A stretch of DNA of 64,000 bases from Thermoplasmata archaeon (lineage in GTDB: Archaea > Thermoplasmatota > Thermoplasmata > Lutacidiplasmatales > UBA184). The stretch lies in assembly GCA_028864975.1 (NCBI GenBank), contig JAGWLG010000011.1:26081-90080 (forward strand), read 5' to 3'. How positions within the stretch are numbered: the first letter of the stretch is position 1; each line of letters opens with the position of its first letter. A program made the translations under genes and the position numbers. Shown in pieces: positions 6,462-39,384 of the stretch. The notes beneath the pieces are model-generated. The model was given only the letters and a program-made list of their open reading frames with translations, made no database searches and had not been told where the DNA came from.

Positions 6462-6644
6462 GCTCCTTGCCGGCCGGGCCGGGGATGGCCCATGTCGTCG
6501 CGTCTCTCGAGCAGCAGGGGCCGCCGGTCGAAGCCGGGTATCTCTTCTTGGGTCCATGGGCCGATGAGGTTAGGGTCAATCGAGCTTCACTATGCTGTCG
6601 ACAGCTCCGTAGGAGGCTTCGCGTTCTGCCGGAGTTCCCCGACG

Positions 6645-8504
6645 TCAGGCTTCGGGCTTGGTCTTGCGCCGCTGTTGAGAAGAGGCCCCCGCGGGAGGTA
6701 CCCCTGGCGACGCCTCCACGGTGGCATCCCCCGAGGAGACCTTGCCATCCGCCGAGAACCTTCGAACGTGGCGGAGCATCGCCGACTCCCGTTTCCGTTC
6801 GGCCCGGTGGTACCCCTCGTCTCGGGTCCCCTGTGTCATCAGGATGACCACGCGCCCGGGGGCGCTCCTCCCCGTCCGCCCCTTCCGCTGGATGGTACGG
6901 ATCTCGCTCGGAAGGGCTTCGAAGAAGACCACCAGGTCGACGTTGGGGATGTCGATCCCCTCCTCGGCGACCGAGCTCGCCACCAGGACGGGGAACCTCC
7001 CGGAGCGGAAGTCCTCGAGGACCCGGGCCTGCTCCCTCTGGTCCATCCCCTTGTCCTCGTCCGACCGGGTGGCCTGCCCCACGAAGCGGCGCGCGACCAC
7101 CCCTCGCTCGGCGAGCCCCTCGACGATCGAACGGACCGTGTCGCGGAACTGTGCGAAGACCAGGATCTTGGCGGCGGAGTTCTTTTCGAGCGTCTCCTGG
7201 ACCACGGAGGCCAGCTCCGGGAGCTTCGGATGAGAAGCGCGGCCCTCGGGACCCAAGCTCACGCTTGCGGCCTCCCGGGACTTCGCGATCATCGGATGGG
7301 CGAGGAAGGCCTTGTCCGCCTTTCCGAGCTTGTCCTTCGCCGCAACGCGCTCGAAGTAGCCCAGGAGCGGGGCGACCCCCTGCGTCTCGAGAAGCTCTCC
7401 GGCGTGGTAGAAGTGCATGGCGAGCATCAATCGATAGAGGGCGCCGAACTTCCGCCCCATCGGGCCGGGGCGGGCCATGATCATCCCCCGCGTCGCGACG
7501 AGGTCCTTCACCCCGGTGACCCGGAGGGGCTTGTTCCGCAGGAACCCCATCTTCTGGAGGCTGTGCATCGACTCGTTCGCCGCCTCGCGGAGCCCCTTGC
7601 GCAGCTCCTCGAGCTCGGGGGGGAGCCGAACCCTGACGTGTTCGGTCTCGACAGCCTGGACATAGGCCGCGACGTCCGGGTCCTCGCGCGTCCGTGCCTC
7701 CACGCGGGAGATGGCGAGCGCCCCCAGGACCTCGTCGATCTTCGTCCCCTTCCCACCTGGGGATGCGGTGAGGCCGAGGACTCGACGGTCCTCGGGGCGC
7801 TGCGTCCGGTAGATGGCGGCGATCTTCACGTAGGCGTAGTTCCCGACGGCCCGGTGCGCCTCGTCGAAGACGAGCAACGCGACGTCCCGCAGGGAGTACC
7901 GCCCCTCCACCAGATCATTGACCACCAGCTGCGGCGTGGCGAAGACCGCCTGCGCAGGCTCCCAGGCCCCCTCCCGTTTCGGCGATCCTACCGTGCCAGT
8001 GAAGGTGGCCCGTGGGAGGGAGCGGAACCACCCCGCGAAGGAGCGGGCGTGCTGCTCCACCAACGGGCGGGTGGGAGCGAGGAACAGCACTTTCCCGCGG
8101 CGGCAACGCAGCCGCTCGGCCGCCGCCATCGCGGCGATCACGGTCTTCCCGAGCCCCGTGGGAAGAACCACCAGGACATCGGTCTCCAGCGCCATCCGTG
8201 TGATCGTGAGCTGGAAGGGGTAGGCCCGAACGCGGGAAGGTCGTAGCAAGGGATGGTCGACGAACTCGCTCGACGACTCTTGGAGGAGCATCCCCTCGGG
8301 CAGCGGCGGCTCGGGGGGAGGAAGGGCCGCGGCGGGCACGCCCACGGAAGGGTGCCCCGAGGGCTGCTCGCCTTCTTCCCCCCCGCCCACCAGAAAGTCG
8401 TCGAGGGTTCTCTGGGGCTTCGGCGCTACAGGGGAGGGAGGTCCGACGGGGGCGTCCGAGGAGGCCGCACCGGCCTTCTTCCCCGGGGCTCGCAGGCGCT
8501 CCAC
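6645..8504 (-). CDS. hef: Hef/FANCM-like SF2 DEAH helicase without ERCC4 nuclease domain
   Basis: LPTGLGKT, FLAPTRPLVEQH, VFDEAHRAVGNYAY, LGLTASPG, SSVAEEGIDIP, IQRKGRTGR. Confidence 0.9.
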   Translation of the reverse strand: MERLRAPGKKAGAASSDAPVGPPSPVAPKPQRTLDDFLVGGGEEGEQPSGHPSVGVPAAALPPPEPPLPEGMLLQESSSEFVDHPLLRPSRVRAYPFQLTITRMALETDVLVVLPTGLGKTVIAAMAAAERLRCRRGKVLFLAPTRPLVEQHARSFAGWFRSLPRATFTGTVGSPKREGAWEPAQAVFATPQLVVNDLVEGRYSLRDVALLVFDEAHRAVGNYAYVKIAAIYRTQRPEDRRVLGLTASPGGKGTKIDEVLGALAISRVEARTREDPDVAAYVQAVETEHVRVRLPPELEELRKGLREAANESMHSLQKMGFLRNKPLRVTGVKDLVATRGMIMARPGPMGRKFGALYRLMLAMHFYHAGELLETQGVAPLLGYFERVAAKDKLGKADKAFLAHPMIAKSREAASVSLGPEGRASHPKLPELASVVQETLEKNSAAKILVFAQFRDTVRSIVEGLAERGVVARRFVGQATRSDEDKGMDQREQARVLEDFRSGRFPVLVASSVAEEGIDIPNVDLVVFFEALPSEIRTIQRKGRTGRSAPGRVVILMTQGTRDEGYHRAERKRESAMLRHVRRFSADGKVSSGDATVEASPGVPPAGASSQQRRKTKPEA

Positions 8505-25991: not shown

Positions 25992-26066
25992 GGGTCTGTG
26001 GGCTAGCTTGGTCTAGACTTGGGCGTTCGGGACGCTCAGACTCCGGTTCAAATCCGGACAGACCCA
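25992..26066 (+). tRNA. tRNA-Pro (CGG)
   Basis: Acceptor GGGTCTG/CAGACCC plus A; anticodon arm GGGCG-TTCGGGA-CGCTC; T-arm CCGG-TTCAAAT-CCGG; no intron, no encoded CCA. Confidence 0.95.
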
Positions 26067-26219
26067 TACTCATCAAGGCCGCCCGCTCTCGCCCTCTCTT
26101 CTCGACCCCTCCTCGCGGGAAGGGTCGGTCAAGCCCGAGAGGCCTTCCCTTCCCTTCCCCGCCTCCGTGCGTATGACCGACAGCTCCGGCCGAGGCGAGA
26201 CGGATCGGCATGCGGGAGC

Positions 26220-27116
26220 TCAAGCGAGGAGATGGTCGAGATACCCCGAAACCCCATCAAGGTCGCGAACGGGGGGCGGGAAGGACATTCGTTCACCAAG
26301 ATCCCGGGCGAGCCAGGAGAAGAGGTCGCGTCCTGACCTCAGCGCGTCCGCGATCGACCCCCGGTCGTATCTTGCGACGGTGCGGGAAAAGTCACGTACG
26401 GCGCGCGGATCCGCCCACGTTTCGAAGAACCTCGCATCATGCCAAACGTCCACGGCACGGTTGCTTCTCGCTAGGGCGTGCCATCGCACCATCTGGACCA
26501 GCAGGACTCGCAGGTACCCGTTGGTGGCACCCAACGATGTGAGGAGCTCGCCTCGCCGGAGCTTCTTGGCGGTCCAGATGAGATGGAACCAGTAGTCGTT
26601 CGAGAGATTGGCGAACTCGTCCGACGTAGGCAGCTTCGGCGGCTCCGCCTTCACCGCCGTGGGCATGACGATCCCGTCCTTGTTCGTCAGGACCCGGAAC
26701 CCGCGTGCCAGGACCTCGGCCGCGCCGGGGGTCCGGAGGACCACCTCCTCGGGGTGGCGCATTAGCCGTTTCAGAGCGTAGTAGAGGAAGAGCGAACCCC
26801 GCCCCACGAAGGGGAAGACCGCCAGATCCACATCCTGGCCGTCCTCGAAGAGCACGCGGACCTCCTCCCCCGAGCCCAAGCCGTTCGGCTCGCGATGGAC
26901 GGTCCAGGGACGGCCCAGCTTCTCAACCCACGCAAATTCGCGAAGCAGCAGACCGGGCTGACGGACGAAGAGCGCGACGTCAATGTCCGAGAAGGCGTCC
27001 GCCGGTCTATTCGTTCGCGCTTGCGAACCCACGAGGATCGCCAGGCGGACGTTCCCGTCGGCTTCCGACCAGTGTGCAAGGCGGGGGATCCACTCAGCGG
27101 CAGGAGGCGCGGGCAT
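26220..27116 (-). CDS. Aminoglycoside 6-adenylyltransferase (AadK-like) family nucleotidyltransferase
   Basis: VRLAILVGSQAR...DAFSDIDV, VLFEDGQDVD, NDYWFHLIWTAKKLRRGEL, RFFETWAD. Start could extend to the GTG at 27203. Confidence 0.8.
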   Translation of the reverse strand: MPAPPAAEWIPRLAHWSEADGNVRLAILVGSQARTNRPADAFSDIDVALFVRQPGLLLREFAWVEKLGRPWTVHREPNGLGSGEEVRVLFEDGQDVDLAVFPFVGRGSLFLYYALKRLMRHPEEVVLRTPGAAEVLARGFRVLTNKDGIVMPTAVKAEPPKLPTSDEFANLSNDYWFHLIWTAKKLRRGELLTSLGATNGYLRVLLVQMVRWHALARSNRAVDVWHDARFFETWADPRAVRDFSRTVARYDRGSIADALRSGRDLFSWLARDLGERMSFPPPVRDLDGVSGYLDHLLA

Positions 27117-27480
27117 CTTCACGGGACCCGTCTCCGGGTTCTTGATGGTGCCGTCGCGGTGGTGGCACCTTTGTTCCTCCTTGAGCCCGGATGGCCCGAG
27201 CACCGCCCCCGCACGTCAATAGGGGGGGCTCTTCGCGTCTCGCCGGGACCGGATAGTCTCGTGCCGCCCCTCGGTTCAGTCGCGATGCCAGAGCCCCGAT
27301 GGACGAGGACAGGCGGCGCCCATCCCTATCCACCCAGGAATCTCCCGTTGTTCTCGTCACCTCTCTACCTTTCCCCTGGTCAAGGCGCCCGTTCGTGATG
27401 TCCGGTTCTGACCCGCGTGGAACCCTGAGGGTCCAGCAGCGCGTGGGACTGACCCTCGGGACACCCGCCCCTCGGGGGAT

Positions 27481-27500
27481 GAATTGGAATCCACCAATTC
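27481..27500 (+). promoter_or_regulatory. Inverted repeat GAATTGG-N6-CCAATTC, putative operator of the mfnB operon
   Basis: Perfect 7-bp AT-rich arms in GC-rich context, 78 bp upstream of ATG 27578. Confidence 0.6.
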
Positions 27501-27577
27501 TCTAAGACCTCCCAGCCGAGATGAGGCTCGAACCGGCCCAACTCCTCGAGGGCGAGGGCGGTCAAGAGCGTGGGACC

Positions 27578-28342
27578 ATGATGTTGATGGTGAGCGTCCA
27601 GGACCTCAAGGAGGCCCGAGAGAGCGTCGCCGGCGGCGCGGACATCGTCGATGTCAAGAACCTCCAGGAGGCGCTGGTCGGTTCCAACTTCCCCCCGGTG
27701 GTCCGTGAGGTCCGAAGGGCGTTCCCGAAGCGCATCCACGTGAGCGTAACCTTGGGGGTCGCGCCCAACCAACCCGGCACGGTGGCCATGGCCGTGTATG
27801 GCGCCGCCGCGCTCGAGGCGACCTCGGTCAAGGTCGGGTTCGTCCAGACGCACTACGCCACGGCGCTCGACATCCTCAAGGAGAGCCGAAGGGCGCTCGA
27901 AGGCTCGCAGACGAAGCTCATCGCCGCGACCTTCGCGGACGCTCCCCTTTTCCCCGGTGGCATCGACCCCAAACTGGTGGTCCGACTGGGGAAGGAGAGC
28001 CGCAGCGATGGGATCCTCATCGACACCCTGACCAAGGATGGCAGGAACCTCTTCGACTTCCTGGACGAGGCCACGCTTCGTTCGCTCGTCACCGAGGGCA
28101 AGGAGGCGGGGATGAGCACGGCCCTCTCCGGTCACCTGAGGATCCCGAACCTGAACGCCCTCGTCCGGATCAACCCGGACATCGTGGGGGTCCGGGGCGC
28201 GGTCTGCGCCAACGGGGACCGGGAGAAAGGCGCGGTCGCCGCCTCGGCCGTAGCGAGGCTCCGCACCGAGCTTGACGCGAGGCTCACCGGCAGGGTCGAT
28301 GTCTACTCGGAACCTGGCCCCCCCGACGTGCTGGTGGCCTGA
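27578..28342 (+). CDS. mfnB: (5-formylfuran-3-yl)methyl phosphate synthase (DUF556) family
   Basis: GGADIVDVKN, PGTVAMA..GAA, SVKVG, LIDTLTKDG, PDIVGVRGAVC..GDR. Confidence 0.88.
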   Translation: MMLMVSVQDLKEARESVAGGADIVDVKNLQEALVGSNFPPVVREVRRAFPKRIHVSVTLGVAPNQPGTVAMAVYGAAALEATSVKVGFVQTHYATALDILKESRRALEGSQTKLIAATFADAPLFPGGIDPKLVVRLGKESRSDGILIDTLTKDGRNLFDFLDEATLRSLVTEGKEAGMSTALSGHLRIPNLNALVRINPDIVGVRGAVCANGDREKGAVAASAVARLRTELDARLTGRVDVYSEPGPPDVLVA

Positions 28343-28352
28343 GGGAGCGAAC

Positions 28353-28619
28353 ATGCCTCCTGTCGCACTGACCATCGATGGGACGGACCGGACCTGCAAG
28401 GGGGTCATCGCGAAGCTCGAGACCGGCCTCCATGACCTTCCAGTGGGGAGCCTCTTCATGGCGATCGTCGGCGACGTACCGACCCGTGTCGATGTGCGGG
28501 CCTGGGCCGACCGGAGGGGGCACCGCGTGCTCGAGGACCGTACCCGCGATCGAGGAGGCGGCTTCGAGCTCCTACTCGCCAAAGGGCCTTCCATGGACCA
28601 CGGCGAGATCGGGAGCTGA
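28353..28619 (+). CDS. TusA/SirA-like sulfur carrier family protein
   Basis: About 88 aa: IDGTDRTCKG...L.VG.LF.....D..T.VDV.AWA...GH.V...FELLLAK. Confidence 0.7.
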   Translation: MPPVALTIDGTDRTCKGVIAKLETGLHDLPVGSLFMAIVGDVPTRVDVRAWADRRGHRVLEDRTRDRGGGFELLLAKGPSMDHGEIGS

Positions 28620-28630
28620 GGGAGGGGGCG

Positions 28631-29662
28631 ATGAGGTACACCCGGAAGGAGGCGAAGTCCTGGGCCCGTGAGAAGATGGTCGGTCAGTGGACGACCATGA
28701 TGACCCCCTTCTCCACGGACGGGGAGCTGGACCTTCGCGGACTCGCCTCCAACATCGAGCGCGTTCTCCAGCTCGGCACGAAGGGGCTGGGCTTCTCCTG
28801 GAACATGGGGGAGTTCTGGAGCCTGACCCACGAGGAGCGGCTTCGTCTCATGGAGGCGGTCCCTCCTCTCGTCCGCGGCCGTGCCTTGACCGCCTTTCAA
28901 GTGACCCACACGTCTGAGCGCGAGGTGGTCGCGCTCGCCCGACGAGCTCAGGAGCTGGGGTACGACCTAGCGATCCTCGCGGCCCCCTACATCATGACGA
29001 AGACCGAGGAGCAGGTCCTGGACTTCGTCTCCCGCGTTGCGAATCAGGTGGACCTGGGCCTGGCGTTCTACAACTCTCCTCAGTTCGGCATCGTCCTCTC
29101 GGCCAAGGCCCTTTCCACGATGGCGGATCTTCCGACCCTGGTCGCCATCAAGGAAGCGAGCTTCAACCTCTCCCTCTCGATCGACACGCACCTGCAGGCC
29201 GGGGCGAAGGCGGTGGTCAGCGTGCCGGACGAGGAGATCTTCTTCGTCGGGGAGCCGTACGGGATCCACCAGCAGGTGATGTTCGCCAACACCAGCGACT
29301 GGCGCTTCGACACCCCCTCCCGGCATGACTACGTCCGGTTCATCGACCTCGCGACGCGCGGCGACCTCGAGGAGGCGCGGGCCCTCTATCCCAGGATCTG
29401 GCCCGTGAAGCGCGTCTCCCGGAAGTGGTGGGGAAAGCTCGCCGGCAGGACCGGTGGTGCCCTCCCTGTCCAGATGGTGAAGTACTGGGGGGAGCTAGTC
29501 GGGATGGTCCATGGGCCGGTCCGCCCCCCGGTCCTGCCGCTCACCTCGGCGGAGATGACGGAGCTCCGCTCAGACCTGGAGCCCCTCGGGCTCCTCCAGG
29601 GAGGACAAGAGAGGTCCAAGGGGGGAAGGGCATCGTATGGTCCTGCCATCATCGCGCCCTGA
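28631..29662 (+). CDS. Dihydrodipicolinate synthase-family class I aldolase/lyase
   Basis: TPFSTDGELD, GEFWSLTHEER, FYNSP (Tyr), AIKEAS (Schiff-base Lys), GPVRPPVLPLT; GSTGE motif replaced by WNMGE. Confidence 0.85.
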   Translation: MRYTRKEAKSWAREKMVGQWTTMMTPFSTDGELDLRGLASNIERVLQLGTKGLGFSWNMGEFWSLTHEERLRLMEAVPPLVRGRALTAFQVTHTSEREVVALARRAQELGYDLAILAAPYIMTKTEEQVLDFVSRVANQVDLGLAFYNSPQFGIVLSAKALSTMADLPTLVAIKEASFNLSLSIDTHLQAGAKAVVSVPDEEIFFVGEPYGIHQQVMFANTSDWRFDTPSRHDYVRFIDLATRGDLEEARALYPRIWPVKRVSRKWWGKLAGRTGGALPVQMVKYWGELVGMVHGPVRPPVLPLTSAEMTELRSDLEPLGLLQGGQERSKGGRASYGPAIIAP

Positions 29663-30449
29663 GGACGAGCTCGCTCTCGGGCGGGTCCGTGAGGGCCTTC
29701 GGCCGATGCGCCAGACCTTCACCGTGGTCGATGGCGGTCGAAGGGTCCGCCTTCGCGTGTCCAGGGTCGGGGTTGGTGCCCTCCTCACCAGGTACGGCCG
29801 GTTCTACCAGAGCGAGTTCGAGGTCTCGGACCGCTGGCGTCGCTACGCGGTCCTCTCTCCGGGAGAGCTCGGCGAGCGGCTCCTTCCGAGGCTCGACCGG
29901 GGGAGGGCGCTCCCCCTTCGGATCGATTCGGGATGCGACACGGGACAGACAGGGGGCGACCTGACCTGCGACTGCCGAGCGCAGCTTGACCGGTCCCTCC
30001 AGAGGATGGCGCGGCGCCACCGGGGCTTTGTGATCCGCGTCCCGGAGCAAGAGGGGAAGGGGTGGGGTCTCCACCACAAGCTCGCAGCGCATTGGCTGCA
30101 GGAGCAGCTTGGCATCAGCAACCTGGAAGCGGTGAGCCGACTCGACCCGGGAGCGGAGCTCGACCAGCGGACGTACGGGGGCGTGGCGGCCGTGCTCAGG
30201 TCCCTCGGGGTTCCCGTGGGGGCTCGCCTCCAGCTGATGACGAACAACCCGGAGAAGGTCCGTGGCCTGGAGGCGAACGGCTTCCGCGTGGTCCGGGAGC
30301 CTCTGGTCATCCGTCCGACGCCGTTGACCCGCCTCAACCTCATGGCGAAGCAGCGGGTCCTCCACCACATCGGGCTGGTCCCGGAGGAGAAGGAGGAGCG
30401 TCGGAACGCGGCTGGGGACGCGAGGACCCGAGTTCCGATCACGGCGTGA
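29637..30449 (+). CDS. GTP cyclohydrolase II (RibA)-like protein, divergent
   Basis: RIDSGCDTGQTGGDLTCDC (Cx10CxC Zn ligands), QEGKGWG, DQRTY, LMTNNPEKV. Confidence 0.8.
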   Translation: MVLPSSRPEDELALGRVREGLRPMRQTFTVVDGGRRVRLRVSRVGVGALLTRYGRFYQSEFEVSDRWRRYAVLSPGELGERLLPRLDRGRALPLRIDSGCDTGQTGGDLTCDCRAQLDRSLQRMARRHRGFVIRVPEQEGKGWGLHHKLAAHWLQEQLGISNLEAVSRLDPGAELDQRTYGGVAAVLRSLGVPVGARLQLMTNNPEKVRGLEANGFRVVREPLVIRPTPLTRLNLMAKQRVLHHIGLVPEEKEERRNAAGDARTRVPITA

Positions 30450-30561
30450 ACCTCCGCGCGGCTCGGAGCGCGCACGGGTGTGCGTGAACTTGGAGAGACT
30501 GACGAGAATAGTACTCTCCGCGGGAAGTGTTTAGGCTCCGAGCGGAGCGGGAAAGGAAAGC

Positions 30562-31053
30562 ATGCTCGCAAAGAAACCCCACCCGACGACCACGACGACC
30601 ACCCTGCGGACGACCCCGGCCCGGGGTTTGTCGAACTACATGGACCAGCTCTTCGAGAACTTCCGGGAAGAAATGATGACGGGGCTCCTCCCCCGGTCGA
30701 CCCTCTTCGAAGGATGGCCCAGTGGACGTTGGTTCCCTGCCCTTCTGGATGTGGAGGACAAGGGAAGCACCTACGAGATCCGCACGGACCTCCCCGGTGC
30801 CCGGAAGGACGAGATCGAGGTGAAGGTCTCGGGGCACAGCCTCCAGATCCAGGCTCAACAGACCCACGAGCTCTCCGAGGAGAGGAAGAACTACCTGTGC
30901 CACGAAAGGACCTACGGAGGATTCGAGAGGACCGTCGATCTCCCGGAGGACGTCGTCCCGGAGAAGATCTCGGCTCAGTACAAGGACGGGGTCCTGATGG
31001 TGAGCGTCCCCAAGGCGCACCCGGTCCCCGAAAGAAAGATCCCGGTCGGCTGA
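30562..31053 (+). CDS. Small heat shock protein Hsp20/alpha-crystallin
   Basis: PALLDVEDKG..YEIRTDLPG, ERTYGGFERTVDLP, AQYKDGVL.VSVPK, C-terminal IPV. Confidence 0.93.
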   Translation: MLAKKPHPTTTTTTLRTTPARGLSNYMDQLFENFREEMMTGLLPRSTLFEGWPSGRWFPALLDVEDKGSTYEIRTDLPGARKDEIEVKVSGHSLQIQAQQTHELSEERKNYLCHERTYGGFERTVDLPEDVVPEKISAQYKDGVLMVSVPKAHPVPERKIPVG

Positions 31054-31072
31054 ACCCTCGCCACCCGGGCTG

Positions 31073-31104
31073 CCCGGTCGGAGCTTATCGCCGCTCCGAC
31101 CGGG
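31073..31104 (+). terminator. 12-bp perfect hairpin downstream of hsp20
   Basis: CCCGGTCGGAGC-TTATCGCC-GCTCCGACCGGG; no U-tract. Confidence 0.4.
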
Positions 31105-31481
31105 GGAGGAAGGTGCAAGATTCCCCCGCGCACACGCGACCTCGAACTTCGGGTCCGTCACCTGTCGTCCACGTGCTCACCGACATGAACGGGCCCGTTC
31201 ATGGCCCCGAACGTGAGTGTCTTCCCATATGTCGAGCTCGATCGCGCAGCGCTTCTGGGGCCTCTGGCCCAGCCGCGGGACCCATGGGTCGCCGTCGGCC
31301 CCCAGTCCCCGGTCCCACCGGCGGGAAGGTGATGACCTCGAGGTCGCACTTCGTGAGGCCTTGAGAGAACTCTCGAAGGTTCGCACAGGTCCGCGGCAGA
31401 GTGTCGCGCCGTGACCTCCAGGCCACTACGTTAGCTTCGGGATCGCGACCGTTCAATTCCTACCCCCAGCATCCCCCCCGG

Positions 31482-31754
31482 ATGAGGAGCACCACGACCT
31501 TTCGCCCCGCCATGCGGTGGATGATCGAGGCGGACGGACGGGGGTCCGAGCTCCGTGAAGGACGCTCCTGGCCTCAGACCACCCGAGCGAGTGCGCCACG
31601 CGACGTGGAACCGGCCTTCCGCGAACTGATGCGGGAGATCGAGGGCCTGCAGGACCGGACCCGTTTGAACCTGGAGATGATCCGGCTCGAGATCGGGAAC
31701 GGAAAGGCCCCGGGTCCGAGGGACCGGTCGCGGGAGAGACCTCAGCCACGGTAG
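31482..31754 (+). CDS. Small hypothetical protein
   Basis: Amphipathic helix FRELMREIEGLQDRTRLNLEMIRLEI; weak TATA-like TTCAATT upstream. Confidence 0.4.
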   Translation: MRSTTTFRPAMRWMIEADGRGSELREGRSWPQTTRASAPRDVEPAFRELMREIEGLQDRTRLNLEMIRLEIGNGKAPGPRDRSRERPQPR

Positions 31755-31854
31755 CCGCTCCGGCGGAGCGCCTTCGTCGGGTCGGTGGCCCGGCTCCTCG
31801 GTGCCTCACCCGTGCGGTCGTACCGATTAGCCCCGGCCCCGCGTCGCCTCCTCG

Positions 31855-32457
31855 ATGGAGAGGTCGACGGGAGCTCCCCTTCCGGGAGGGCGGGGACTCT
31901 ACGAGGTGCGTTTCCACGGTCGAGGAGGACAAGGCACGGTCATCGCCTCGGTCCTGCTCGCCGAGGCCGCCTTTCATGAGGGAAAGGGGGTCCAGGCGTT
32001 CCCTTTCTTCGGCGTCGAGCGAAGGGGAGCCCCCGTCGTCGCGCACACGCGGATCGCGGACGGACAGATCCGTCTCGCGTGCGATGTCGACCGCCCTGAC
32101 GCCCTCATCGTCATGGACCCCTCGCTCATCTCGAGCGTCGCGGGGCCCTCCCTGAAGGCCTTGCGGCCCGGAGGTTTCGCCCTTCTCAATTCCTCAAGGT
32201 CGGCGAAGGAACTGGGCCTCTCGGACGTGGCCGGCCACGTCGTCTGCTTCGATGCCTCGACCATCGCCCGGGAGCACGGGCTCGGCTCCGCCGCGAGCCC
32301 CATCGTGAACACGGTCGTGCTGGGAGCGTTCTCCCGCCTTACCGGGGTCGTCTCCTGGCCCTCCCTGCGAGCTGCGATCGAAAAGAAGGTCCCCACGAAG
32401 ACCGAGGCGAACATCGCCGCCGCCCAGAAGGCCTACACGGCCAAGGGGTCCCCGTGA
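31855..32457 (+). CDS. porC: 2-oxoacid:ferredoxin oxidoreductase gamma subunit
   Basis: EVRFHGRGGQG, PFFGVERRGAPV, PDALIVMD, PIVNTVVLGA. Confidence 0.93.
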   Translation: MERSTGAPLPGGRGLYEVRFHGRGGQGTVIASVLLAEAAFHEGKGVQAFPFFGVERRGAPVVAHTRIADGQIRLACDVDRPDALIVMDPSLISSVAGPSLKALRPGGFALLNSSRSAKELGLSDVAGHVVCFDASTIAREHGLGSAASPIVNTVVLGAFSRLTGVVSWPSLRAAIEKKVPTKTEANIAAAQKAYTAKGSP

Positions 32458-32726
32458 CGCGTCTCGATTCCCGAGAGATCACCGTCCCCTACGCCTGGCG
32501 GTCGACGCGGGAGATCTCCTCGGCCGCCTCTTGGCGCTCCCAGCGGCCGATCCTGGAGCTCGACAAGTGCACCGGTTGCATGGTCTGCTGGAAGTTCTGT
32601 CCCGAGCCGGCGATCATCCCCGACGGGAAGAAGGTCCGGTTCGACCTCTCCGCCTGCAAGGGGTGCGGCGTCTGCGAGGAGACCTGCGCACCGAGGGCCA
32701 TCCACATGGAGACGGAGGGGCTCTGA
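32454..32726 (+). CDS. porD: 2-oxoacid:ferredoxin oxidoreductase delta subunit (2x[4Fe-4S])
   Basis: WRSQRP, CTGCMVCWKFCP, CKGCGVCEETC; GTGA overlap with porC. Confidence 0.93.
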   Translation: MTRLDSREITVPYAWRSTREISSAASWRSQRPILELDKCTGCMVCWKFCPEPAIIPDGKKVRFDLSACKGCGVCEETCAPRAIHMETEGL

Positions 32727-33904
32727 TGGCGGCGGAACTGCTGAGCGGGAACCAGGCCGTGGGGGAGGCCGTCCGCCTCGCCAAGGCCCAGGTCGTCTCC
32801 GCCTATCCCATCACGCCGCAGACCACGATCGTGGAACATCTGGCGGAGCTCATCGGTTCACGCCGTCTCGCTGCGGACTACATCACCGTCGAGAGCGAGC
32901 ACTCCGCGATGGCCGCGTGCATCGGGGCCTCCCTTGCGGGCGCGAGGACCTTCACGGCGACCTCCAGCCAGGGCCTCGCGCTGATGCACGAGATGCTCCA
33001 CTGGGCGAGCGGGCAGAGGGCTCCGATCGTCATGGCCAACGTCAACCGGGCGCTGGCGCCCCCATGGAACATCTGGGTCGACCACTCGGACTCGATGTCC
33101 CAGCGCGACACCGGATGGATCCAGCTCTACGCCGAGACGAACCAGGAGGCCCTCGACACGGTCCTCCAGGCCTTCCGCGTCGCCGAAGACCCGTCGATCA
33201 TGCTCCCCGCGATGGTGATGCTGGACGCCTTCGTCCTCTCGCACACCTACATGCCGGTCGAGCTACCCGATGCCCGCGTCGTCGATCGCTTCCTGCCCTC
33301 GTTCTCGCCGGTCGAGAAGCTCACGCCAGGGAGCATGCAGCTCTTCGGCTCCTTCTCCCCGCCGAACCTCTGCTTCATGGAGCTGCGGTCCGCCATGGCG
33401 GAGGCCATGGGTCGGGCACGCGGGCTCCTGCTCCGGGCGAGCAAGGAGTATGCCGAGCTCACCGGTCGGCCTGCGCTCGGGCTCGTCGAGGAGTACCGCA
33501 CCGAGGGCGCGGACGTGGTCCTCCTCGCCGCCGGGTCGCTGGCCGCGACGGCCCGGGACGCGGTCGACCTCCTGCAGAACGAGGGAAAGAGGGTCGGGCT
33601 CGTCCGGGTCCGGGCCTTCCGCCCGTTCCCGGAGAAGGAGGTCCGTGCCCTGGGGCGGCGGTTCGGGACCCTGGGCGTGCTCGACCGAGCCTACTCGTAT
33701 GGCGCCGGGGGTCCGATCGCTTCCGAGGTACGTGCCGCCCTCTACGGGCTACCGCGTCCACCCAGGGTCGCCTCGTTCATCCTGGGGCTGGGGGGCCGGG
33801 ATGTGCGACCTGACGACCTGGTGAAGCTCTATCGCCGTCTGCTCAGAGGGGAGACCCCGAAGGAAGAGTGGGTGGGGCTCCACGCACCCGCGGGAGGGAC
33901 CTGA
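32726..33904 (+). CDS. porA: 2-oxoacid:ferredoxin oxidoreductase alpha subunit
   Basis: LSGNQAV, AYPITPQT, VESEHSAM, FTATSSQGLALMHE, RVRAFRPFP, LGGRD; ATG 32726. Confidence 0.95.
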   Translation: MAAELLSGNQAVGEAVRLAKAQVVSAYPITPQTTIVEHLAELIGSRRLAADYITVESEHSAMAACIGASLAGARTFTATSSQGLALMHEMLHWASGQRAPIVMANVNRALAPPWNIWVDHSDSMSQRDTGWIQLYAETNQEALDTVLQAFRVAEDPSIMLPAMVMLDAFVLSHTYMPVELPDARVVDRFLPSFSPVEKLTPGSMQLFGSFSPPNLCFMELRSAMAEAMGRARGLLLRASKEYAELTGRPALGLVEEYRTEGADVVLLAAGSLAATARDAVDLLQNEGKRVGLVRVRAFRPFPEKEVRALGRRFGTLGVLDRAYSYGAGGPIASEVRAALYGLPRPPRVASFILGLGGRDVRPDDLVKLYRRLLRGETPKEEWVGLHAPAGGT

Positions 33905-33906
33905 CC

Positions 33907-35040
33907 ATGGCGAAGCTCACCCTCCCCGAGCGGGAGCTCGTCGAACCCGGTCACCTGGCCTGTCAGGGATGCGGGGCCGCGCTCGCGATGCGCCTCTTCC
34001 TGAAGGGGACGGGACCGGACACGGCGCTCGTCATCCCCGCCTGCTGCTGGGCCGTGATCGCGGGACCCATGCCCACGACCTGCCTCAAGGTCCCCACCGC
34101 CTTCTCCGCCTTCGAGGCGACGGCCTCGGTCGCCTCGGGGATTAAGGCCGGCCTCCGACGGACCGGTCGCGGCGAGACGCTCGTCGCGGGGTTCGCGGGC
34201 GACGGAGGGACCGCCGATATCGGGATCCAGGCGCTCTCGGGGGCGGCCGAGCGCAACGAGGACATGATCTACGTCTGCTACGACAACGAGGCGTACATGA
34301 ACACCGGGATCCAGCGGAGCGGCTCGACGCTCCCGGGGACCTGGACGACGACCACTCCCGCCGGGGTCGGCAAGACCACCCCGAAGAAGGACATGCCCGC
34401 CATCATGGCCGCGCACGCCATCCCGTACGTGGCCACGCTCAACCCGTCGTTCCCGGAGGACTTCGTCGCGAAGGTGAAGAAAGCCGCCTCGATGCACGGG
34501 CTGCGCTACCTGCACGTCCTGGCCGACTGCCCGACGGGGTGGAAGCACGACCCGTCGCTGATGGTGAAGGTGGGAAGGCTCGCGACCACGAGCCACCTCT
34601 GGCCCCTCTACGAGGTCGTCGAGGGCGCCTACCGCGTGACCTGGGAGCCGTCGAATCCGACCCCGCTCGAGGAGTATCTCAAACTGCAAGGACGCTTCGC
34701 GGGGATGAGCCCCGCCGAGGTGGCATCGTTGAAGAAGATGGTAGAGGAACGGTGGAAGGCGCTGAAAGCACGAACCACGACGGGGACCTTGGCGACGGGG
34801 AGCTCTCCGCCCTCGTCGGCCACCGTGGCACCGGTGCCGTCTGCCCCGAGTCCTCGGGCTCCCGCCCCTGCATCGACCTCCAAGATGGGTCCTCCGGCCA
34901 TTTCCGCCACCTCGAGGGCGGAGGCGGCCGAACTGCCGCTCTGCTACAAGACGGCGAAGCGTTGCGATGGGAGCTGTGGGATGCTCCAACCGGGAGGACT
35001 ATGCTGGGAGCTCTTCGCGTTGGGGCCCAGGCACTTCTGA
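33907..35040 (+). CDS. porB: 2-oxoacid:ferredoxin oxidoreductase beta subunit with C-terminal extension
   Basis: GHLACQGCG, TPP motif GDGGTADIG...YDNEAYMNTGIQ, CPTGW, YLKLQGRF; extra linker and Cys4 tail. Confidence 0.93.
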   Translation: MAKLTLPERELVEPGHLACQGCGAALAMRLFLKGTGPDTALVIPACCWAVIAGPMPTTCLKVPTAFSAFEATASVASGIKAGLRRTGRGETLVAGFAGDGGTADIGIQALSGAAERNEDMIYVCYDNEAYMNTGIQRSGSTLPGTWTTTTPAGVGKTTPKKDMPAIMAAHAIPYVATLNPSFPEDFVAKVKKAASMHGLRYLHVLADCPTGWKHDPSLMVKVGRLATTSHLWPLYEVVEGAYRVTWEPSNPTPLEEYLKLQGRFAGMSPAEVASLKKMVEERWKALKARTTTGTLATGSSPPSSATVAPVPSAPSPRAPAPASTSKMGPPAISATSRAEAAELPLCYKTAKRCDGSCGMLQPGGLCWELFALGPRHF

Positions 35041-35109
35041 CGGCCGTACGGCCTTCCCCACGGGTCTGAACTAGCCCGGAGATGCGGCTGTCCCACGAGA
35101 AGCTCTGAG

Positions 35110-35427
35110 CTAGGCCACTTGGGCCCGAAGGTCATCGAGCTCCCGGACGACATCCACGCGAAGCCCCATTTCGACGACGCGCTGGTCCACGGTCCGGATG
35201 TCCGCCTTTAACTCGCTCCGAAGGGAGTCGATCTTCAGGTCCACCCTAGCGATATCGCTCTTCGTGGTGCCCTCGACGCGCGCCACATCCGAGCGAAGCG
35301 CCGCGAGCTCTCCCCGAACGGCGGTGATCTCCCCCCGAACGCCCGCGAGTTCTCCCTTGATCTCGCTCAGCTTGGGCAGCAGGAGCCGCTCGAGCCACCC
35401 CGGGACCTTCTCCACCGCTGCTCCCAC
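35110..35427 (-). CDS. Coiled-coil repeat hypothetical protein (DUF1640/CCDC90-like)
   Basis: KVPGWLERLLLPKLSEIKGE followed by heptad repeats. Confidence 0.6.
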   Translation of the reverse strand: MGAAVEKVPGWLERLLLPKLSEIKGELAGVRGEITAVRGELAALRSDVARVEGTTKSDIARVDLKIDSLRSELKADIRTVDQRVVEMGLRVDVVRELDDLRAQVA

Positions 35428-35781
35428 CGTCGCTCCTACCAGGCCTCTGCCTCCTCTTCAAGCCGCAGTCTTCGCGCATCACGCCACGAACGGCTCCAAA
35501 AGCCGAAGGAGACCTGGGCGCAGCGTGTAAGGTGCCTCGCCGGCCCGGGGGGAGATGAGAGGATAGCTTCCCCTGCTACCCCGTGACGTGAGTGAGGAAT
35601 TTCGAGGAGACCTCGGGGAGAAGTCTGCGGAACTGACACGTCGAGGTTCCAAGTCGACGCGTCGTCCCGAGGCCTGCGGGACGGCACTCTGCGACCCGGA
35701 CCCGACGGTCCCCCTACATCTCACTCACGAGGCGAAAACGAGGGACGTGAAGCCCCCGAGGGTTCGGATATCGCGACTCGT

Positions 35782-36198
35782 TTACGGGAGTCCAGGGACC
35801 CAGAGAGTTTCTGAGAGCCCTTCGAAATGGGCATCTCCGGTCGCGACCCGGGTCCCGAAGCGCCGCGCCGTTGCGAGGACAACCCCGTCGCCCAGGCCCG
35901 GGAGGGGGGACTTGCGCGAACGCGCCCGGGACCGAAGCTCGTCGGCGGCGCGCGCCCCTTCGACAGCAAGGGCAGGGTCGGTCGGGATCACGTAGGTGAA
36001 GACCCCCACTTGGGCCAGGTCCTGGAGCACCTGGGCGTCGGGTCTTCCCTTTCGGCGGCCGAACGCGGCGAGCTCGGCCAGGACGAGGGCCGGGCAGACG
36101 CAGAAGTCCGCCTGCTCGATCTGCTGACGGACCTTCCGGCCCATCTCCGTGCCCTCCAGCAGCTCGACCCACGCCCATGAGTCAATCGTGAGATTCAA
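35782..36198 (-). CDS. vapC: PIN-domain toxin (VapC)
   Basis: IDSWAWVE, LVLAEL, GDGVVLATA, ATGDAHF acidic PIN residues; TTG start overlaps the antitoxin end. Confidence 0.85.
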   Translation of the reverse strand: MNLTIDSWAWVELLEGTEMGRKVRQQIEQADFCVCPALVLAELAAFGRRKGRPDAQVLQDLAQVGVFTYVIPTDPALAVEGARAADELRSRARSRKSPLPGLGDGVVLATARRFGTRVATGDAHFEGLSETLWVPGLP

Positions 36199-36388
36199 GG
36201 CGGTCCGCCTCCGTGAAGGGCCCCACCCTCTTCCAGCTCCCCTGGAGCTTGTCCAGCGCCCTCGACCGACGCTCCTTCAGCAGCCGGCGAATCGTCTCCT
36301 CTGCGGTAGTTGTGTGGTAAACCTCTCGGAGGTGCTCGAGGTCCCTCAGCGTGGCGCGTGAGACTCGGACGGAAGTCAGGGCTGCCAT
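36182..36388 (-). CDS. Cognate antitoxin (VapB-like, RHH-type)
   Basis: 68 aa, TSVRVSRATLRDL...EETIRRLL; overlaps vapC. Confidence 0.75.
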   Translation of the reverse strand: MAALTSVRVSRATLRDLEHLREVYHTTTAEETIRRLLKERRSRALDKLQGSWKRVGPFTEADRLESHD

Positions 36389-36587
36389 GGCGTACGCATG
36401 CACGCATGCGTCTCAAGAGTTGCGCGGGCCGTCCTCGGACAACGATGACATTGTGCCGGGAGTTCCTCGATGTCATGGTCATGGAACCCACCTTTGCAAC
36501 ATCCCGGCTTGGCGGTCGGTGGTCTGGGGCGCGTATCCTGGTATTCGAACCTGCGAGGCGCCGGTAAGGCACCGGTCCCCCCCTGGG

Positions 36588-38786
36588 CTACGGGCCGGGG
36601 GGAGCGGGAGGGGGGCCGACCCTTGGCCGTGCCTCCCCCAGCAAGACATCCAGGATCTCGCGCCCGTAGCGTTCGCACTTCGTGTAGCCGATGCCTCGAC
36701 AGAGCCGTAGTTCGGGGAGGGAGGCAGGGCGCCGCTCGACGATAGTGCGCAGGGTCGTGTCGTGCATAATCACGTACGCCGGCACCGCGTCCTGTCGCGC
36801 CCGCCTCCTCCGCCACTCTCGCAGGGCCTGTTCGAGGTGGGCCGAGCCGACCCTCTCTGCCGTGGTCGGTCCCGGGACCGGCTCGACAGGAAGGGCACCG
36901 TGCGGCGTGGGAGGAACGTGGCCCGAGACCTCCTCCATTCCTCGCGTCCCCGCGGGCACCTGCCCGTGCCCGTGCGATGGACTCGGAGGGGGAGCGGAGC
37001 CGAGGGGAAGAGCGGGGGAAAGCTTGGGATGAAGCTCGAGAATGGCCAGGACCTCCTCTGGGCGCACCTCCGGAGGGAGACGTACTCCCCGCAGGACCCG
37101 GAGCTCGGCGTCGGTACGGGGCCGGGCCTGTGCGATCTCGCGGAGGGCCCGTGTCCGAAGCACCTCACGGTGGCGGAGCCCGAGTCGGGAGGCGGTAGAG
37201 TTCCTCCACACCACGAGAGCTCGGAGAAGGGTCTCCTCCTCCGACGTCCACGACGACGTAGAAGGGGACGAAGAGGCACCAAGGTATCCCGTGTCCGAAG
37301 AGGGGGAGCGGAGAGGGGAGGGAGCTCGAGGAACGGAGACCCGAGCCGGTGAGCAAACGTCGCAGCAGGGTTCTGGGCGCCGAGGGAGGACCTGTCCAAA
37401 GTACCGGAGCAGAAACTCCCGCCGGCAGAACCTGCTCTCCGCGTAGCGTCGCATGTACTGAAGGTTACGAAGGCGGATCTCCTGGCGGCGGTGCATGGCC
37501 TCGAGGATCGCCCGTCGGTCCTCGTCCCCGATCGTCCGGTGAAGCACCACGGGGGACCAGGGGTCCCGGCCGCGCTGGCGCTCCAGGAGCTCCCTTGCCG
37601 CCAGGTAGGAGATGAGGTTGCGTGCGGCGTCCTCCTCCTCCGCGCTACGTGCCACGTGCCAGACGTCCCCTACGTGGAGCGCTCGGGCCTCCTCGAACTT
37701 GCCTTCGAGCCACGACCAGTTAGGCTCGTTCTTCTCCGCGAGGAACTCCTGCGTCCTCAGATCGCGGCAAGGGACGCAGGCCAGGATGCCGCGGGCCGCT
37801 TCACCATCGCGGCCGGCCCTGCCGACCTCCTGGGTGTAGGCCTCCAGCGACGAGGGGAGGCCCAGGTGGAGCACGGTCCGCAGGTCCGGCTTGTCCACCC
37901 CCATCCCGAAGGCGATGGTGGCGACCACCGCCCGCACTTCCCCCGCCATGAACCGGGTCTGGACCTCCTCCCGCCGCACCGGGTCCATCCCGGCATGGTA
38001 GGAGGGGACCGGTTCCCCGAGCCAGCCCTGGATCTTGGCCGCCCACTCGTCCGCGGCGTTGCGGCTCAGCGCGTAGGCTAGGAAGGGGCCCTTGAGGCCC
38101 CTCACCTGCTCCTCCAACCACAGTTCGTGGTCGGACGGTTTCCGGAAGGTCGTGACGTGGTATGAGAGGTTGGGCCGGTCCATGGGGGCGACCACGGGCT
38201 CCACCGGCGCCCGCAGCTCCTGGACGATCTCTTGTTGGACCGAGGGGGTGGCCGTTGCGGTGAGCGCGATCACCGGCGGGTGGCCCAACTGTTCGCGAAA
38301 GTAGGGGAGCAATCGGTAGAGCGGACGGAAGTCGTGTCCCCACTGGGAGAGGCAGTGGGCCTCGTCCACGGCGAGCAAGCTCCAACGCGACCCCTGGCAG
38401 GCCGAGAGGAACTCGGGCTGCCACAGCCTCTCGGGGGCGGCATACACGAGACGCGTCCCCTCGTCGCGGATGCGTTCCAGGTTGCGGGAGGTCGTCTCGG
38501 GGGGGTCGGTGCCCGTGACCGCGACGGCGTCGACCCCTCTCCTCTTCAGGGAGGCCACCTGGTCCTTCATCAGGGAGATGAGGGGGGAGACGACGAGGGT
38601 CTTGCCGGGAAGGAGCAGCGCGGGGAGCTGATAGCACAGGGACTTCCCGGAAGAGGTAGGGAGGACCGCGAGGACCGAACGGCCCGCGAGCACGCGCTCC
38701 ACGATCTCCCGCTGGAAAGGACGGAACGCTTCGAAGCCGAAGCGGTCGTGGAGCGTCCGTTCGAGCTCTACGTCCCACCGCTCCAT
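36588..38786 (-). CDS. recQ: RecQ family ATP-dependent DNA helicase with two HRDC domains
   Basis: [60 protein letters not shown], Zn site CRR...CCDVC, two HRDC repeats; ATG 38786. Confidence 0.93.
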
Positions 38787-39259
38787 GGGGAAGGCACCTC
38801 CCAATCGGGGAGGCGAAGCAGGAGCTCCTGGAACTCCTCCTCGGAGAGCTTCCAGAGCGTGCGGTCCCACTCGCCCGCCCGCCCCACCACGAACTCCGAG
38901 AGGTCCTTGCGATGCCAGACGAAGAAGGAGGGGACCGGATGGCGCTGCGAGACCGAGAGGACCTCTCCCAGGCGAAGCATGACCGATTCCTTTCCCGCGT
39001 AGGGGGCGAGGACGCGGAGGAGGGACGCCGGCGGGACCGCCCGGTCCCAGGCGATGAGGTCGTAGAGCCCGACCACATCCAGGGTACCGTCGGGGAGGAT
39101 GCGGTACTCGATCTTGTCGACGTCCATGCAATACGCTCTTCGGGGGAGCTTTTGCTTGTGCCAGTCCCCGAAGTCCTTGGGCTCTCCAGGACCGGACGGG
39201 TGGCGGGGGCGGCTCTCCCACCGCGGGATGGGCGCGCTCTCGAGAGCTCGCGTGGACAT
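38768..39259 (-). CDS. Hypothetical protein, possible PD-(D/E)XK-like fold
   Basis: [21 protein letters not shown] motif; 3' end overlaps the recQ start by 19 bp. Confidence 0.55.
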
Positions 39260-39384
39260 GTGGGGCCCTAAGACTACGGTGGATAATAAGATATCTCACT
39301 ATGCAAACCGCTCAGCTCCTGAGCGCGGTCCCCCGATGGATTGATGTCGCCGCTTCTTACTCGTAGGGCACTGTAGTCTCCTCC

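Follow-up and report, generated by a model that had tools for sequence, protein, structure and literature searches.

A co-inherited MfnB-like, TusA-like and DHDPS-like gene module in a Thermoplasmata archaeon and in bacteria, with a rare GCH2-like neighbour

We have analysed a stretch of 64,000 nucleotides from a Thermoplasmata archaeon (assembly GCA_028864975.1, contig JAGWLG010000011.1, positions 26,081 to 90,080), hereafter called the window, in which four neighbouring genes encode proteins related to MfnB, TusA, DHDPS and GTP cyclohydrolase II (GCH2). Our results indicate that the first three belong together. Their linkage is far beyond chance, and the three proteins, each forming its own tightly constrained subfamily, are co-inherited as adjacent or fused genes across two domains of life. 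In the host genome this module is unrelated to the synthesis of methanofuran, lysine, riboflavin or thiamine, and the trio probably makes an undescribed small molecule. The fourth gene, which is GCH2-like, we read as a rare, lineage-specific and optional accessory. No published description of an MfnB-like/TusA-like/DHDPS-like module was found in our literature searches.

Relatives of the DHDPS-like aldolase that are 63–77% identical to it number in the hundreds and occur in Thermoplasmata, Marsarchaeota, Thermoprotei and some bacteria. From these close relatives 80 loci were drawn, spanning Thermoplasmata, Microcaldota/Marsarchaeota, Chloroflexota and Planctomycetota; MfnB-like neighbours were sought by tblastn, TusA-like genes also by profile search, and open reading frames (ORFs) in high-GC loci were predicted with a GC3-based caller. 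The MfnB-like gene adjoins the aldolase gene in 68 of the 80 loci, and all three genes stand together in 66, i.e. in 66 of the 68 loci that bear the MfnB-like gene. MfnB and TusA are the tightest pair; the TusA-like gene invariably comes right after the MfnB-like one or is joined to its C-terminus. In archaea the genes run MfnB-TusA-aldolase, and Chloroflexota and Planctomycetota have the order aldolase-MfnB-TusA. A single DHDPS-MfnB-TusA ORF of 671–746 amino acids (aa) is found in 21 bacterial loci, MfnB and TusA are fused in 5 further loci, and the representative protein library contains an independent fusion representative of 699 aa (P0155). Co-occurrence is seen on the genome scale as well: among 41 relatives of the host genome, PF04476 (the MfnB family) and the DHDPS-like gene are present in the identical three (G000, G010 and G018). 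The aldolase gene is unlinked to MfnB in five genomes, four of which have the MfnB-TusA pair elsewhere, with an MfnB 71–74% identical to the window protein. Rosetta-stone fusions and genome-wide co-occurrence thus bear out an earlier sequence-only reading of this DNA in so far as it put MfnB, TusA and DHDPS together. That reading had grouped GCH2 with them, and here the neighbourhood check of the four families gave the opposite answer: GCH2 accompanies the trio in 3 of about 68 loci and is not co-conserved. Module proteins are 50–80% identical between the domains of life. We give even chances to the view that the module has been transferred horizontally as a self-contained unit that needs only central metabolites.

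The MfnB-like gene (27578–28342, + strand) matches PF04476 over profile positions 1–227 of 228 (E 6e-58; 196.7 bits, cut-off 22.4) and is the only gene of this family in the host genome. It stays below the NCBIfam equivalogs, scoring 207.8 bits against 341 for NF002573 and 185.3 against 304 for NF002575. In the alignment with MJ1099 (PDB 4RC1; E 3.7e-47, about 45% identity) D25, K27, K85 and D151(149) coincide, and K153, D121, R206 and C210 are also kept. In MJ1099 the two lysines and two aspartates (D25, K27, K85 and D151) are essential, and Lys27 forms the Schiff base (PMC6604932). This tetrad is invariant in 64 module-type sequences and conserved to at least 97% in 114 other family representatives, and the broader catalytic core is likewise common to both sets. 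The predicted chemistry is probably that of 4-(hydroxymethyl)-2-furancarboxaldehyde phosphate (4-HFC-P) synthase or of a close variant. The fold is also the same as in MJ1099 (4RC1/4U9P, EC 4.2.3.153), a TIM barrel, with a template-modelling (TM) score of 0.91 and a root-mean-square deviation of 1.7 Å for a fused homologue. What distinguishes the window clade from MJ1099 is its TusA-like partner, its separation by a long stem and a host genome without detected Ftr or Mch. In a quick maximum-likelihood tree the 16 sampled module-linked MfnBs form one clade, with a stem of 1.32 changes per site and a Shimodaira–Hasegawa-like approximate likelihood ratio (SH-aLRT) support of 99, and the internal branches of this clade are very short as compared to other family representatives. 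Scores in the MfnB library search fall from 273 bits for the module type to 178 and then to about 150 bits for the remainder of the family, which has more than 1500 clusters. To our knowledge, no enzyme other than MfnB forms a furan ring from triose phosphate in a direct manner, and methanofuran and methylofuran are the only compounds with which it has been connected.

The TusA-like gene (28353–28619, + strand) encodes 88 aa and matches PF01206 with E 3.7e-5 and 23.9 bits, which is below the gathering score of 28.6. C15, G17, L22, D47, W51 and H57 are invariant, and in 27 of 27 sequences the CPxP motif is replaced by C-(K/A/T)-G-(V/I/A/L). The family profile matches Thermoplasma Ta1170 (1PAV) at 2.4e-5, with Cys15 aligned to TusA Cys19. 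In the AlphaFold model (predicted local distance difference test, pLDDT, 90) the best Foldseek match is E. coli TusA (3LVJ_C; TM 0.75/0.84), so that a TusA fold with the aligned cysteine at the N-terminus of helix 1 is confirmed at the level of the predicted structure. The two-layer alpha/beta fold and the D...(W/F)...H pattern are common to TusA, SirA and YeeD (3LVJ, 1DCJ, 1PAV and 8K1R), and the cysteine corresponds to the one that carries the persulfide in E. coli TusA. In contrast to these proteins, the window protein is partnered with an aldolase-type barrel and not with sulfur-relay, tRNA-thiolation or Dsr proteins.

The DHDPS-like gene (28631–29662, + strand; PF00701, E 1e-28) reaches 69 bits with TIGR00674, for which the cut-off is 206. 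Its Schiff-base lysine K174 (AIKEAS; DapA Lys161) and Y147 (FYNSP; DapA Tyr133) are kept and invariant, whereas the residues for the proton relay and for the binding of aspartate semialdehyde in DapA (EC 4.3.3.7) are lost: Thr44-Thr45 are changed to N58-M59, Tyr107 to I121 and Arg138 to a gap or Phe. About 100 of some 325 residues, many of them aromatic, do not vary among 11 sequences drawn from the two domains. DapA structures are the nearest relatives in the PDB by sequence, and the model of a fused homologue has the fold of the DapA/N-acetylneuraminate-lyase (NAL) superfamily (TMt 0.84–0.87 to DapA structures). The lysine motif (I/V)KE(A/S) and the tyrosine of YN(x)P are shared with DapA; the differences are WNMGE in place of GTTGE in the window type, about 35 extra C-terminal residues and the many invariant aromatics. 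The host genome has three DHDPS paralogues, of which the module copy is the most divergent; the other two score 183 and 127 bits. Judged by its active-site residues, this aldolase is not DapA. NahE-type hydratase-aldolases were considered as nearest relatives and rejected, because both sequence and fold searches put DapA and NAL first.

The sequence-only reading had described four genes with gaps of 10–11 nt and one 26-nt overlap, and this arrangement was confirmed by ORF, domain and direct junction reading. The gap between MfnB and TusA is 10 nt (gggagcgaac), that between TusA and DHDPS 11 nt (gggagggggcg), and DHDPS overlaps GCH2 by 26 nt. GGAGG-like motifs lie 5–10 nt upstream of the starts of genes 2–4. 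The spacing and these Shine–Dalgarno (SD)-like motifs make co-transcription of the cluster plausible. The MfnB-like start at 27578 (MMLMVS) is the position at which the orthologues and MJ1099 also begin; a longer ORF, opening at 27521, lacks such conservation.

The GCH2-like gene occupies 29637–30449 (+ strand; PF00925, E 5e-26). The ATG at 29637 has an SD-like motif and the alternative start, Met24 at 29706, has none, so 29637 is favoured and the 26-nt overlap is likely real. All homologues of the DHDPS-like protein are without the extension of 18 residues at its C-terminus (29609–29662). Since it is this unique extension that creates the overlap, the arrangement suggests insertion of the GCH2-like gene at the 3' end of the aldolase gene; the two are probably translationally coupled in the window. 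The zinc ligands C100, C111 and C113 (Cys54/65/67) and R178 (the nucleophile, E. coli R128) are kept and invariant, whereas Tyr105 is changed to H152, HSEC to DSGC and EGRG to EGKG. The scores are below the cut-offs for TIGR00505 (89 bits vs 206) and NF001591 (92 vs 148). As compared to RibA (PDB 2BZ0), the zinc Cys triad, the Arg128 equivalent and a TNNP-K motif are common; the window protein differs by histidine in place of Tyr105 (P0122 and P0123 have Leu there), by an insertion of three residues and by a distinct N-terminal domain. GTP cyclohydrolase II acts in two steps via a formylamino intermediate, AFRPP (PMC9478397). Given the change of Tyr105 to His, the GCH2-like enzyme may stop at the formylamino-pyrimidine. 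A GCH2 paralogue of S. coelicolor with a natural Tyr-to-Met change, described by Spoonamore and Bandarian, reportedly stops at this point.

The subfamily of this protein is very rare. None of 400 genomes from the phylum yielded a close homologue; of the 5.8 billion proteins covered by a word-limited search, only P0122–P0124 appeared among the matches listed, as weak relatives; and the best 80 metagenome loci all held canonical RibA and not this subfamily. Apart from the window, the subfamily adjoins the module in loci L042 and L045, where the gene is 47–49% identical to that of the window and convergent with the module. All three known contexts of the GCH2-like subfamily touch the module, and about 95% of the modules are without it. 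That the enzyme feeds the same pathway as the module is a tentative idea which we would rather doubt than defend. In L042, which is from a Marsarchaeota metagenome-assembled genome (MAG), the module has thiamine genes on one side; on the other, a gene for a NUDIX-UDG fusion and one for an exosortase-like protein come before the convergent GCH2-like gene.

The host genome comprises 3.6 Mb in 124 contigs, the window being on contig C29, and is 90% complete. Neither Ftr (PF01913) nor Mch (PF02289) was found in this 90%-complete genome, whereas methanogen controls matched, and a role in methanofuran synthesis was rejected on this ground. A canonical RibA scoring 218 bits is encoded on contig C53. 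The apparent absence of Ftr and Mch together with the canonical RibA and the two better DHDPS paralogues elsewhere means that the module does not serve methanofuran, riboflavin or lysine synthesis, and the sequence-only reading was right that the cluster is neither a methanofuran nor a riboflavin operon. No orthologous partner gene of the module recurs across phyla. An AMP-binding neighbour seemed to be shared by Thermoplasmata and Chloroflexota, but this impression came from clustering that was too loose: the two proteins have 28% identity, one of them resembles acetyl-CoA synthetase, and the host genome has only distant AMP-binding paralogues (29–34% identical). A furoyl-CoA-like degradation context with CoA ligase and Mo-hydroxylase was likewise rejected, being confined to single lineages. 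Mo-hydroxylase, aldehyde dehydrogenase, citrate synthase, spermidine-synthesis and some other neighbours are each limited to one lineage.

From the family assignments, conserved residues, fusions and co-occurrence we infer the chemistry as follows. Genes 1–3 may form a mobile biosynthetic module whose furan-type product is extended by a 2-oxo acid, and we hold this to be an evenly balanced proposition. The MfnB-like enzyme would condense two triose phosphates on Lys27 to 4-HFC-P or to a close, possibly less dehydrated, C6 intermediate; for this step the balance tips slightly in favour. Cys15 of the TusA-like protein would then deliver persulfide sulfur to the carbonyl of the C6 intermediate, or would tether the intermediate as a thiohemiacetal; that sulfur is incorporated is possible, with the chances somewhat against it. 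The DHDPS-like enzyme would bind a 2-oxo acid, by default pyruvate, on Lys174, and the enamine would attack the aldehyde to give a C9 furyl or thio-substituted 2-oxo acid. This last addition is a doubtful step as well. There is precedent in the thiazole synthase ThiG-ThiS and the 2-thiosugar synthase BexX-CysO for such a pairing of Schiff-base TIM barrel and small sulfur carrier; in these a barrel with a Schiff-base lysine and its carrier form a C–S bond on a carbonyl derived from a sugar phosphate. The likeness is one of analogy: the families are unrelated, and the carriers there are beta-grasp thiocarboxylates and not of the TusA-fold persulfide type. In its fullest form the proposal would make the trio a complete mobile synthase that turns triose phosphate and a 2-oxo acid into an undescribed sulfur-bearing furan- or thiophene-type metabolite or cofactor. 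The sulfur would be given by the TusA-like cysteine, and in the window archaeon and a few Marsarchaeota/Microcaldota a pyrimidine part would be added or supplied by a dedicated GCH2 variant. So complete a scheme we regard as unlikely.

Several observations weigh against a furan-forming and 2-oxo-acid-adding module. Two family-conserved tyrosines are replaced by S83 and F119 and Pro29 by L29 in module-type MfnB, and because of these changes the product may be other than 4-HFC-P. The aldolase is without the Thr-Thr pair that binds the carboxylate of pyruvate in nearly all members of its family, and since this pair is lost the substrate may be other than pyruvate. The TusA-like protein is without the CPxP motif and stays under the Pfam threshold. 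A bacterial lineage (L039 and L044) has the MfnB-like and aldolase genes with no TusA-like gene found within 8 kb. The model of the fused protein has a predicted TM score of 0.52, each domain being well folded and their mutual arrangement not fixed. With a genome that is 90% complete, the apparent gene absences are provisional.

It is possible to connect the same genes in other ways. All four could act in one pathway, as the sequence-only reading had proposed; a GTP-derived pyrimidine would then be joined to the furan/2-oxo-acid product to give a pterin-, lumazine- or flavin-like cofactor, maybe with sulfur. The overlap and the SD-like motif before the ATG at 29637 fit such a pathway, as does the contact between GCH2-like gene and module in the window, L042 and L045, and the canonical RibA elsewhere leaves this copy free for another role. 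We nevertheless consider a common pathway unlikely: the gene is missing from about 65 other MfnB-like-bearing loci and has no close homologue in the 400 phylum genomes or in the metagenome loci examined, the L042 and L045 copies are convergent and not co-directional, and the entire 13-kb segment around the gene in the host is variable. With the RibA-like gene not co-conserved, the four-gene pathway suggested earlier is not supported, and no support emerged for a pterin-type product. A catabolic module is improbable for other reasons. Here two class I aldolase-type enzymes would split a phosphorylated 3-deoxy-2-ulosonic or similar sugar acid into pyruvate and trioses, the TusA-like protein being structural or regulatory. 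Such a role leaves the invariant cysteine and the constant MfnB-TusA adjacency unexplained, the catalytic residues with which MfnB carries out the multistep furan synthesis are all in place, and the module has no kinase, transporter or regulator that stays with it from one lineage to another; this has to be set against the origin of both barrels from lyase families with reversible reactions, the patchy, island-like distribution, and the transporters, aldehyde dehydrogenase and Mo-hydroxylases near some loci.

Quinone and thiamine genes near some of the loci point to two further roles. The module could supply the head-group ring for a respiratory quinone of the prenylated kind and so replace the missing early menaquinone steps. 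In 6 archaeal loci a MenA-like UbiA gene is divergent from the aldolase gene at 21–61 bp, an MqnL-like UbiD gene is 10–11 bp downstream in L043 and L053 and 3–6 kb off in L015, L061 and L067, and the host genome has MqnL (TIGR03701) and a UbiA pair without MqnA/D. However, among 24 genomes of the family UbiD is present in 23, MqnA/MqnD (PF02621) in none and the module in 2, so the late quinone genes do not depend on the module, and the head-group role was rejected. The MenA-like UbiA is also without a close homologue in the host genome, and UbiA or UbiD lies within 7 kb in 11 of the 80 loci only. We rate this role as very improbable. An alternative thiamine thiazole synthase, by which triose phosphate, pyruvate and a sulfur carrier would yield the thiazole phosphate skeleton, is scarcely credible. 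It is brought to mind by the chemical analogy with ThiG-ThiS, by ThiL-like and ThiE genes that precede the module on its own strand in L042, and by ThiD near the fused gene in Dehalococcoidia loci. ThiE, ThiN, ThiC, ThiD and Thi4 were not detected in the host genome, which therefore has no enzyme to use the thiazole, and Thi4 is absent in 24 of the 24 family genomes searched; the role was rejected on these findings. A nitrogen donor is not evident either, and the thiamine neighbours are not conserved across loci. It is probable, judging from the gene content, that the lineage is a thiamine auxotroph. Canonical housekeeping roles in methanofuran synthesis, tRNA thiolation, lysine synthesis and riboflavin synthesis have next to no probability: Pfam family matches are all that speaks for them, whereas every NCBIfam equivalog cut-off is missed by all four proteins, Ftr and Mch were not found, T44, T45, Y107 and R138 of DapA and Tyr105 of RibA are lost, better paralogues exist elsewhere in the genome, and same-genus genomes do without the cluster.

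What stands out is a distinct MfnB clade that is firmly coupled to a modified DapA-type aldolase and a cysteine protein of the TusA type in a genome without detected methanofuran-using enzymes. Strong conservation and fusions imply that a defined, selectable product exists. The carriers are aerobic or facultative archaea and the SAR202 and Dehalococcoidia bacteria abundant in the ocean. Identification of the product would add a branch of furan, possibly organosulfur, biochemistry and give a function to a gene that is common in marine and soil metagenomes, and the two barrels are a potential new Schiff-base enzyme pair for the biocatalysis of furan building blocks. The window offers the unfused archaeal form, the one in which the proteins are most easily studied one at a time, together with its rare GCH2-like neighbour.

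Regarding the surroundings of the cluster, the window has a G+C content of 68%, and the nearest relatives of its proteins are from Thermoplasmata archaeon MAGs of soil and peat. Upstream of the cluster there is a 374-nt intergenic region and then a divergent nucleotidyltransferase gene; downstream, a 112-nt gap separates it from an Hsp20 gene. The upstream intergenic region is G+C-rich and contains, about 80 nt before the MfnB-like start, a 7-bp perfect inverted repeat, GAATTGG-N6-CCAATTC (27481–27500), which was read from the sequence and is a candidate binding site for a regulator. Two genomes of the same genus lack, between their Nre and DAO orthologues, a segment of about 13 kb (26000–39300). 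The cluster thus sits in a variable stretch that was probably acquired. In addition to the four-gene cluster and Hsp20 this segment contains an ANT(6)-like nucleotidyltransferase, a pyruvate:ferredoxin oxidoreductase operon, a PIN-domain gene and a RecQ-like helicase.

Some minor observations concern individual loci. In L039 and L044 a gene for a beta-eliminating lyase of the tryptophanase/tyrosine-phenol-lyase type (5608–6984) is divergent from the module; lyases of this type release pyruvate and can release sulfide. The ThiL-like (AIRS) and ThiE genes of L042 occupy 1240–2830, directly upstream of the module. On contig C6 of the host genome (8019–10384; L180) a gene for an MqnL-type UbiD (TIGR03701, 522.7 bits against 495.9) overlaps one for an MqnP/UbiA-like prenyltransferase; of the futalosine-type genes, the family has late ones but not those known for the early steps. 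Directly downstream of Hsp20 in the window, the four genes of an archaeal-type 2-oxoacid (pyruvate):ferredoxin oxidoreductase operon (31401–35040) encode the gamma, alpha and beta subunits of this pyruvate-handling enzyme and, in the position of delta, an unassigned ORF of 117 aa.

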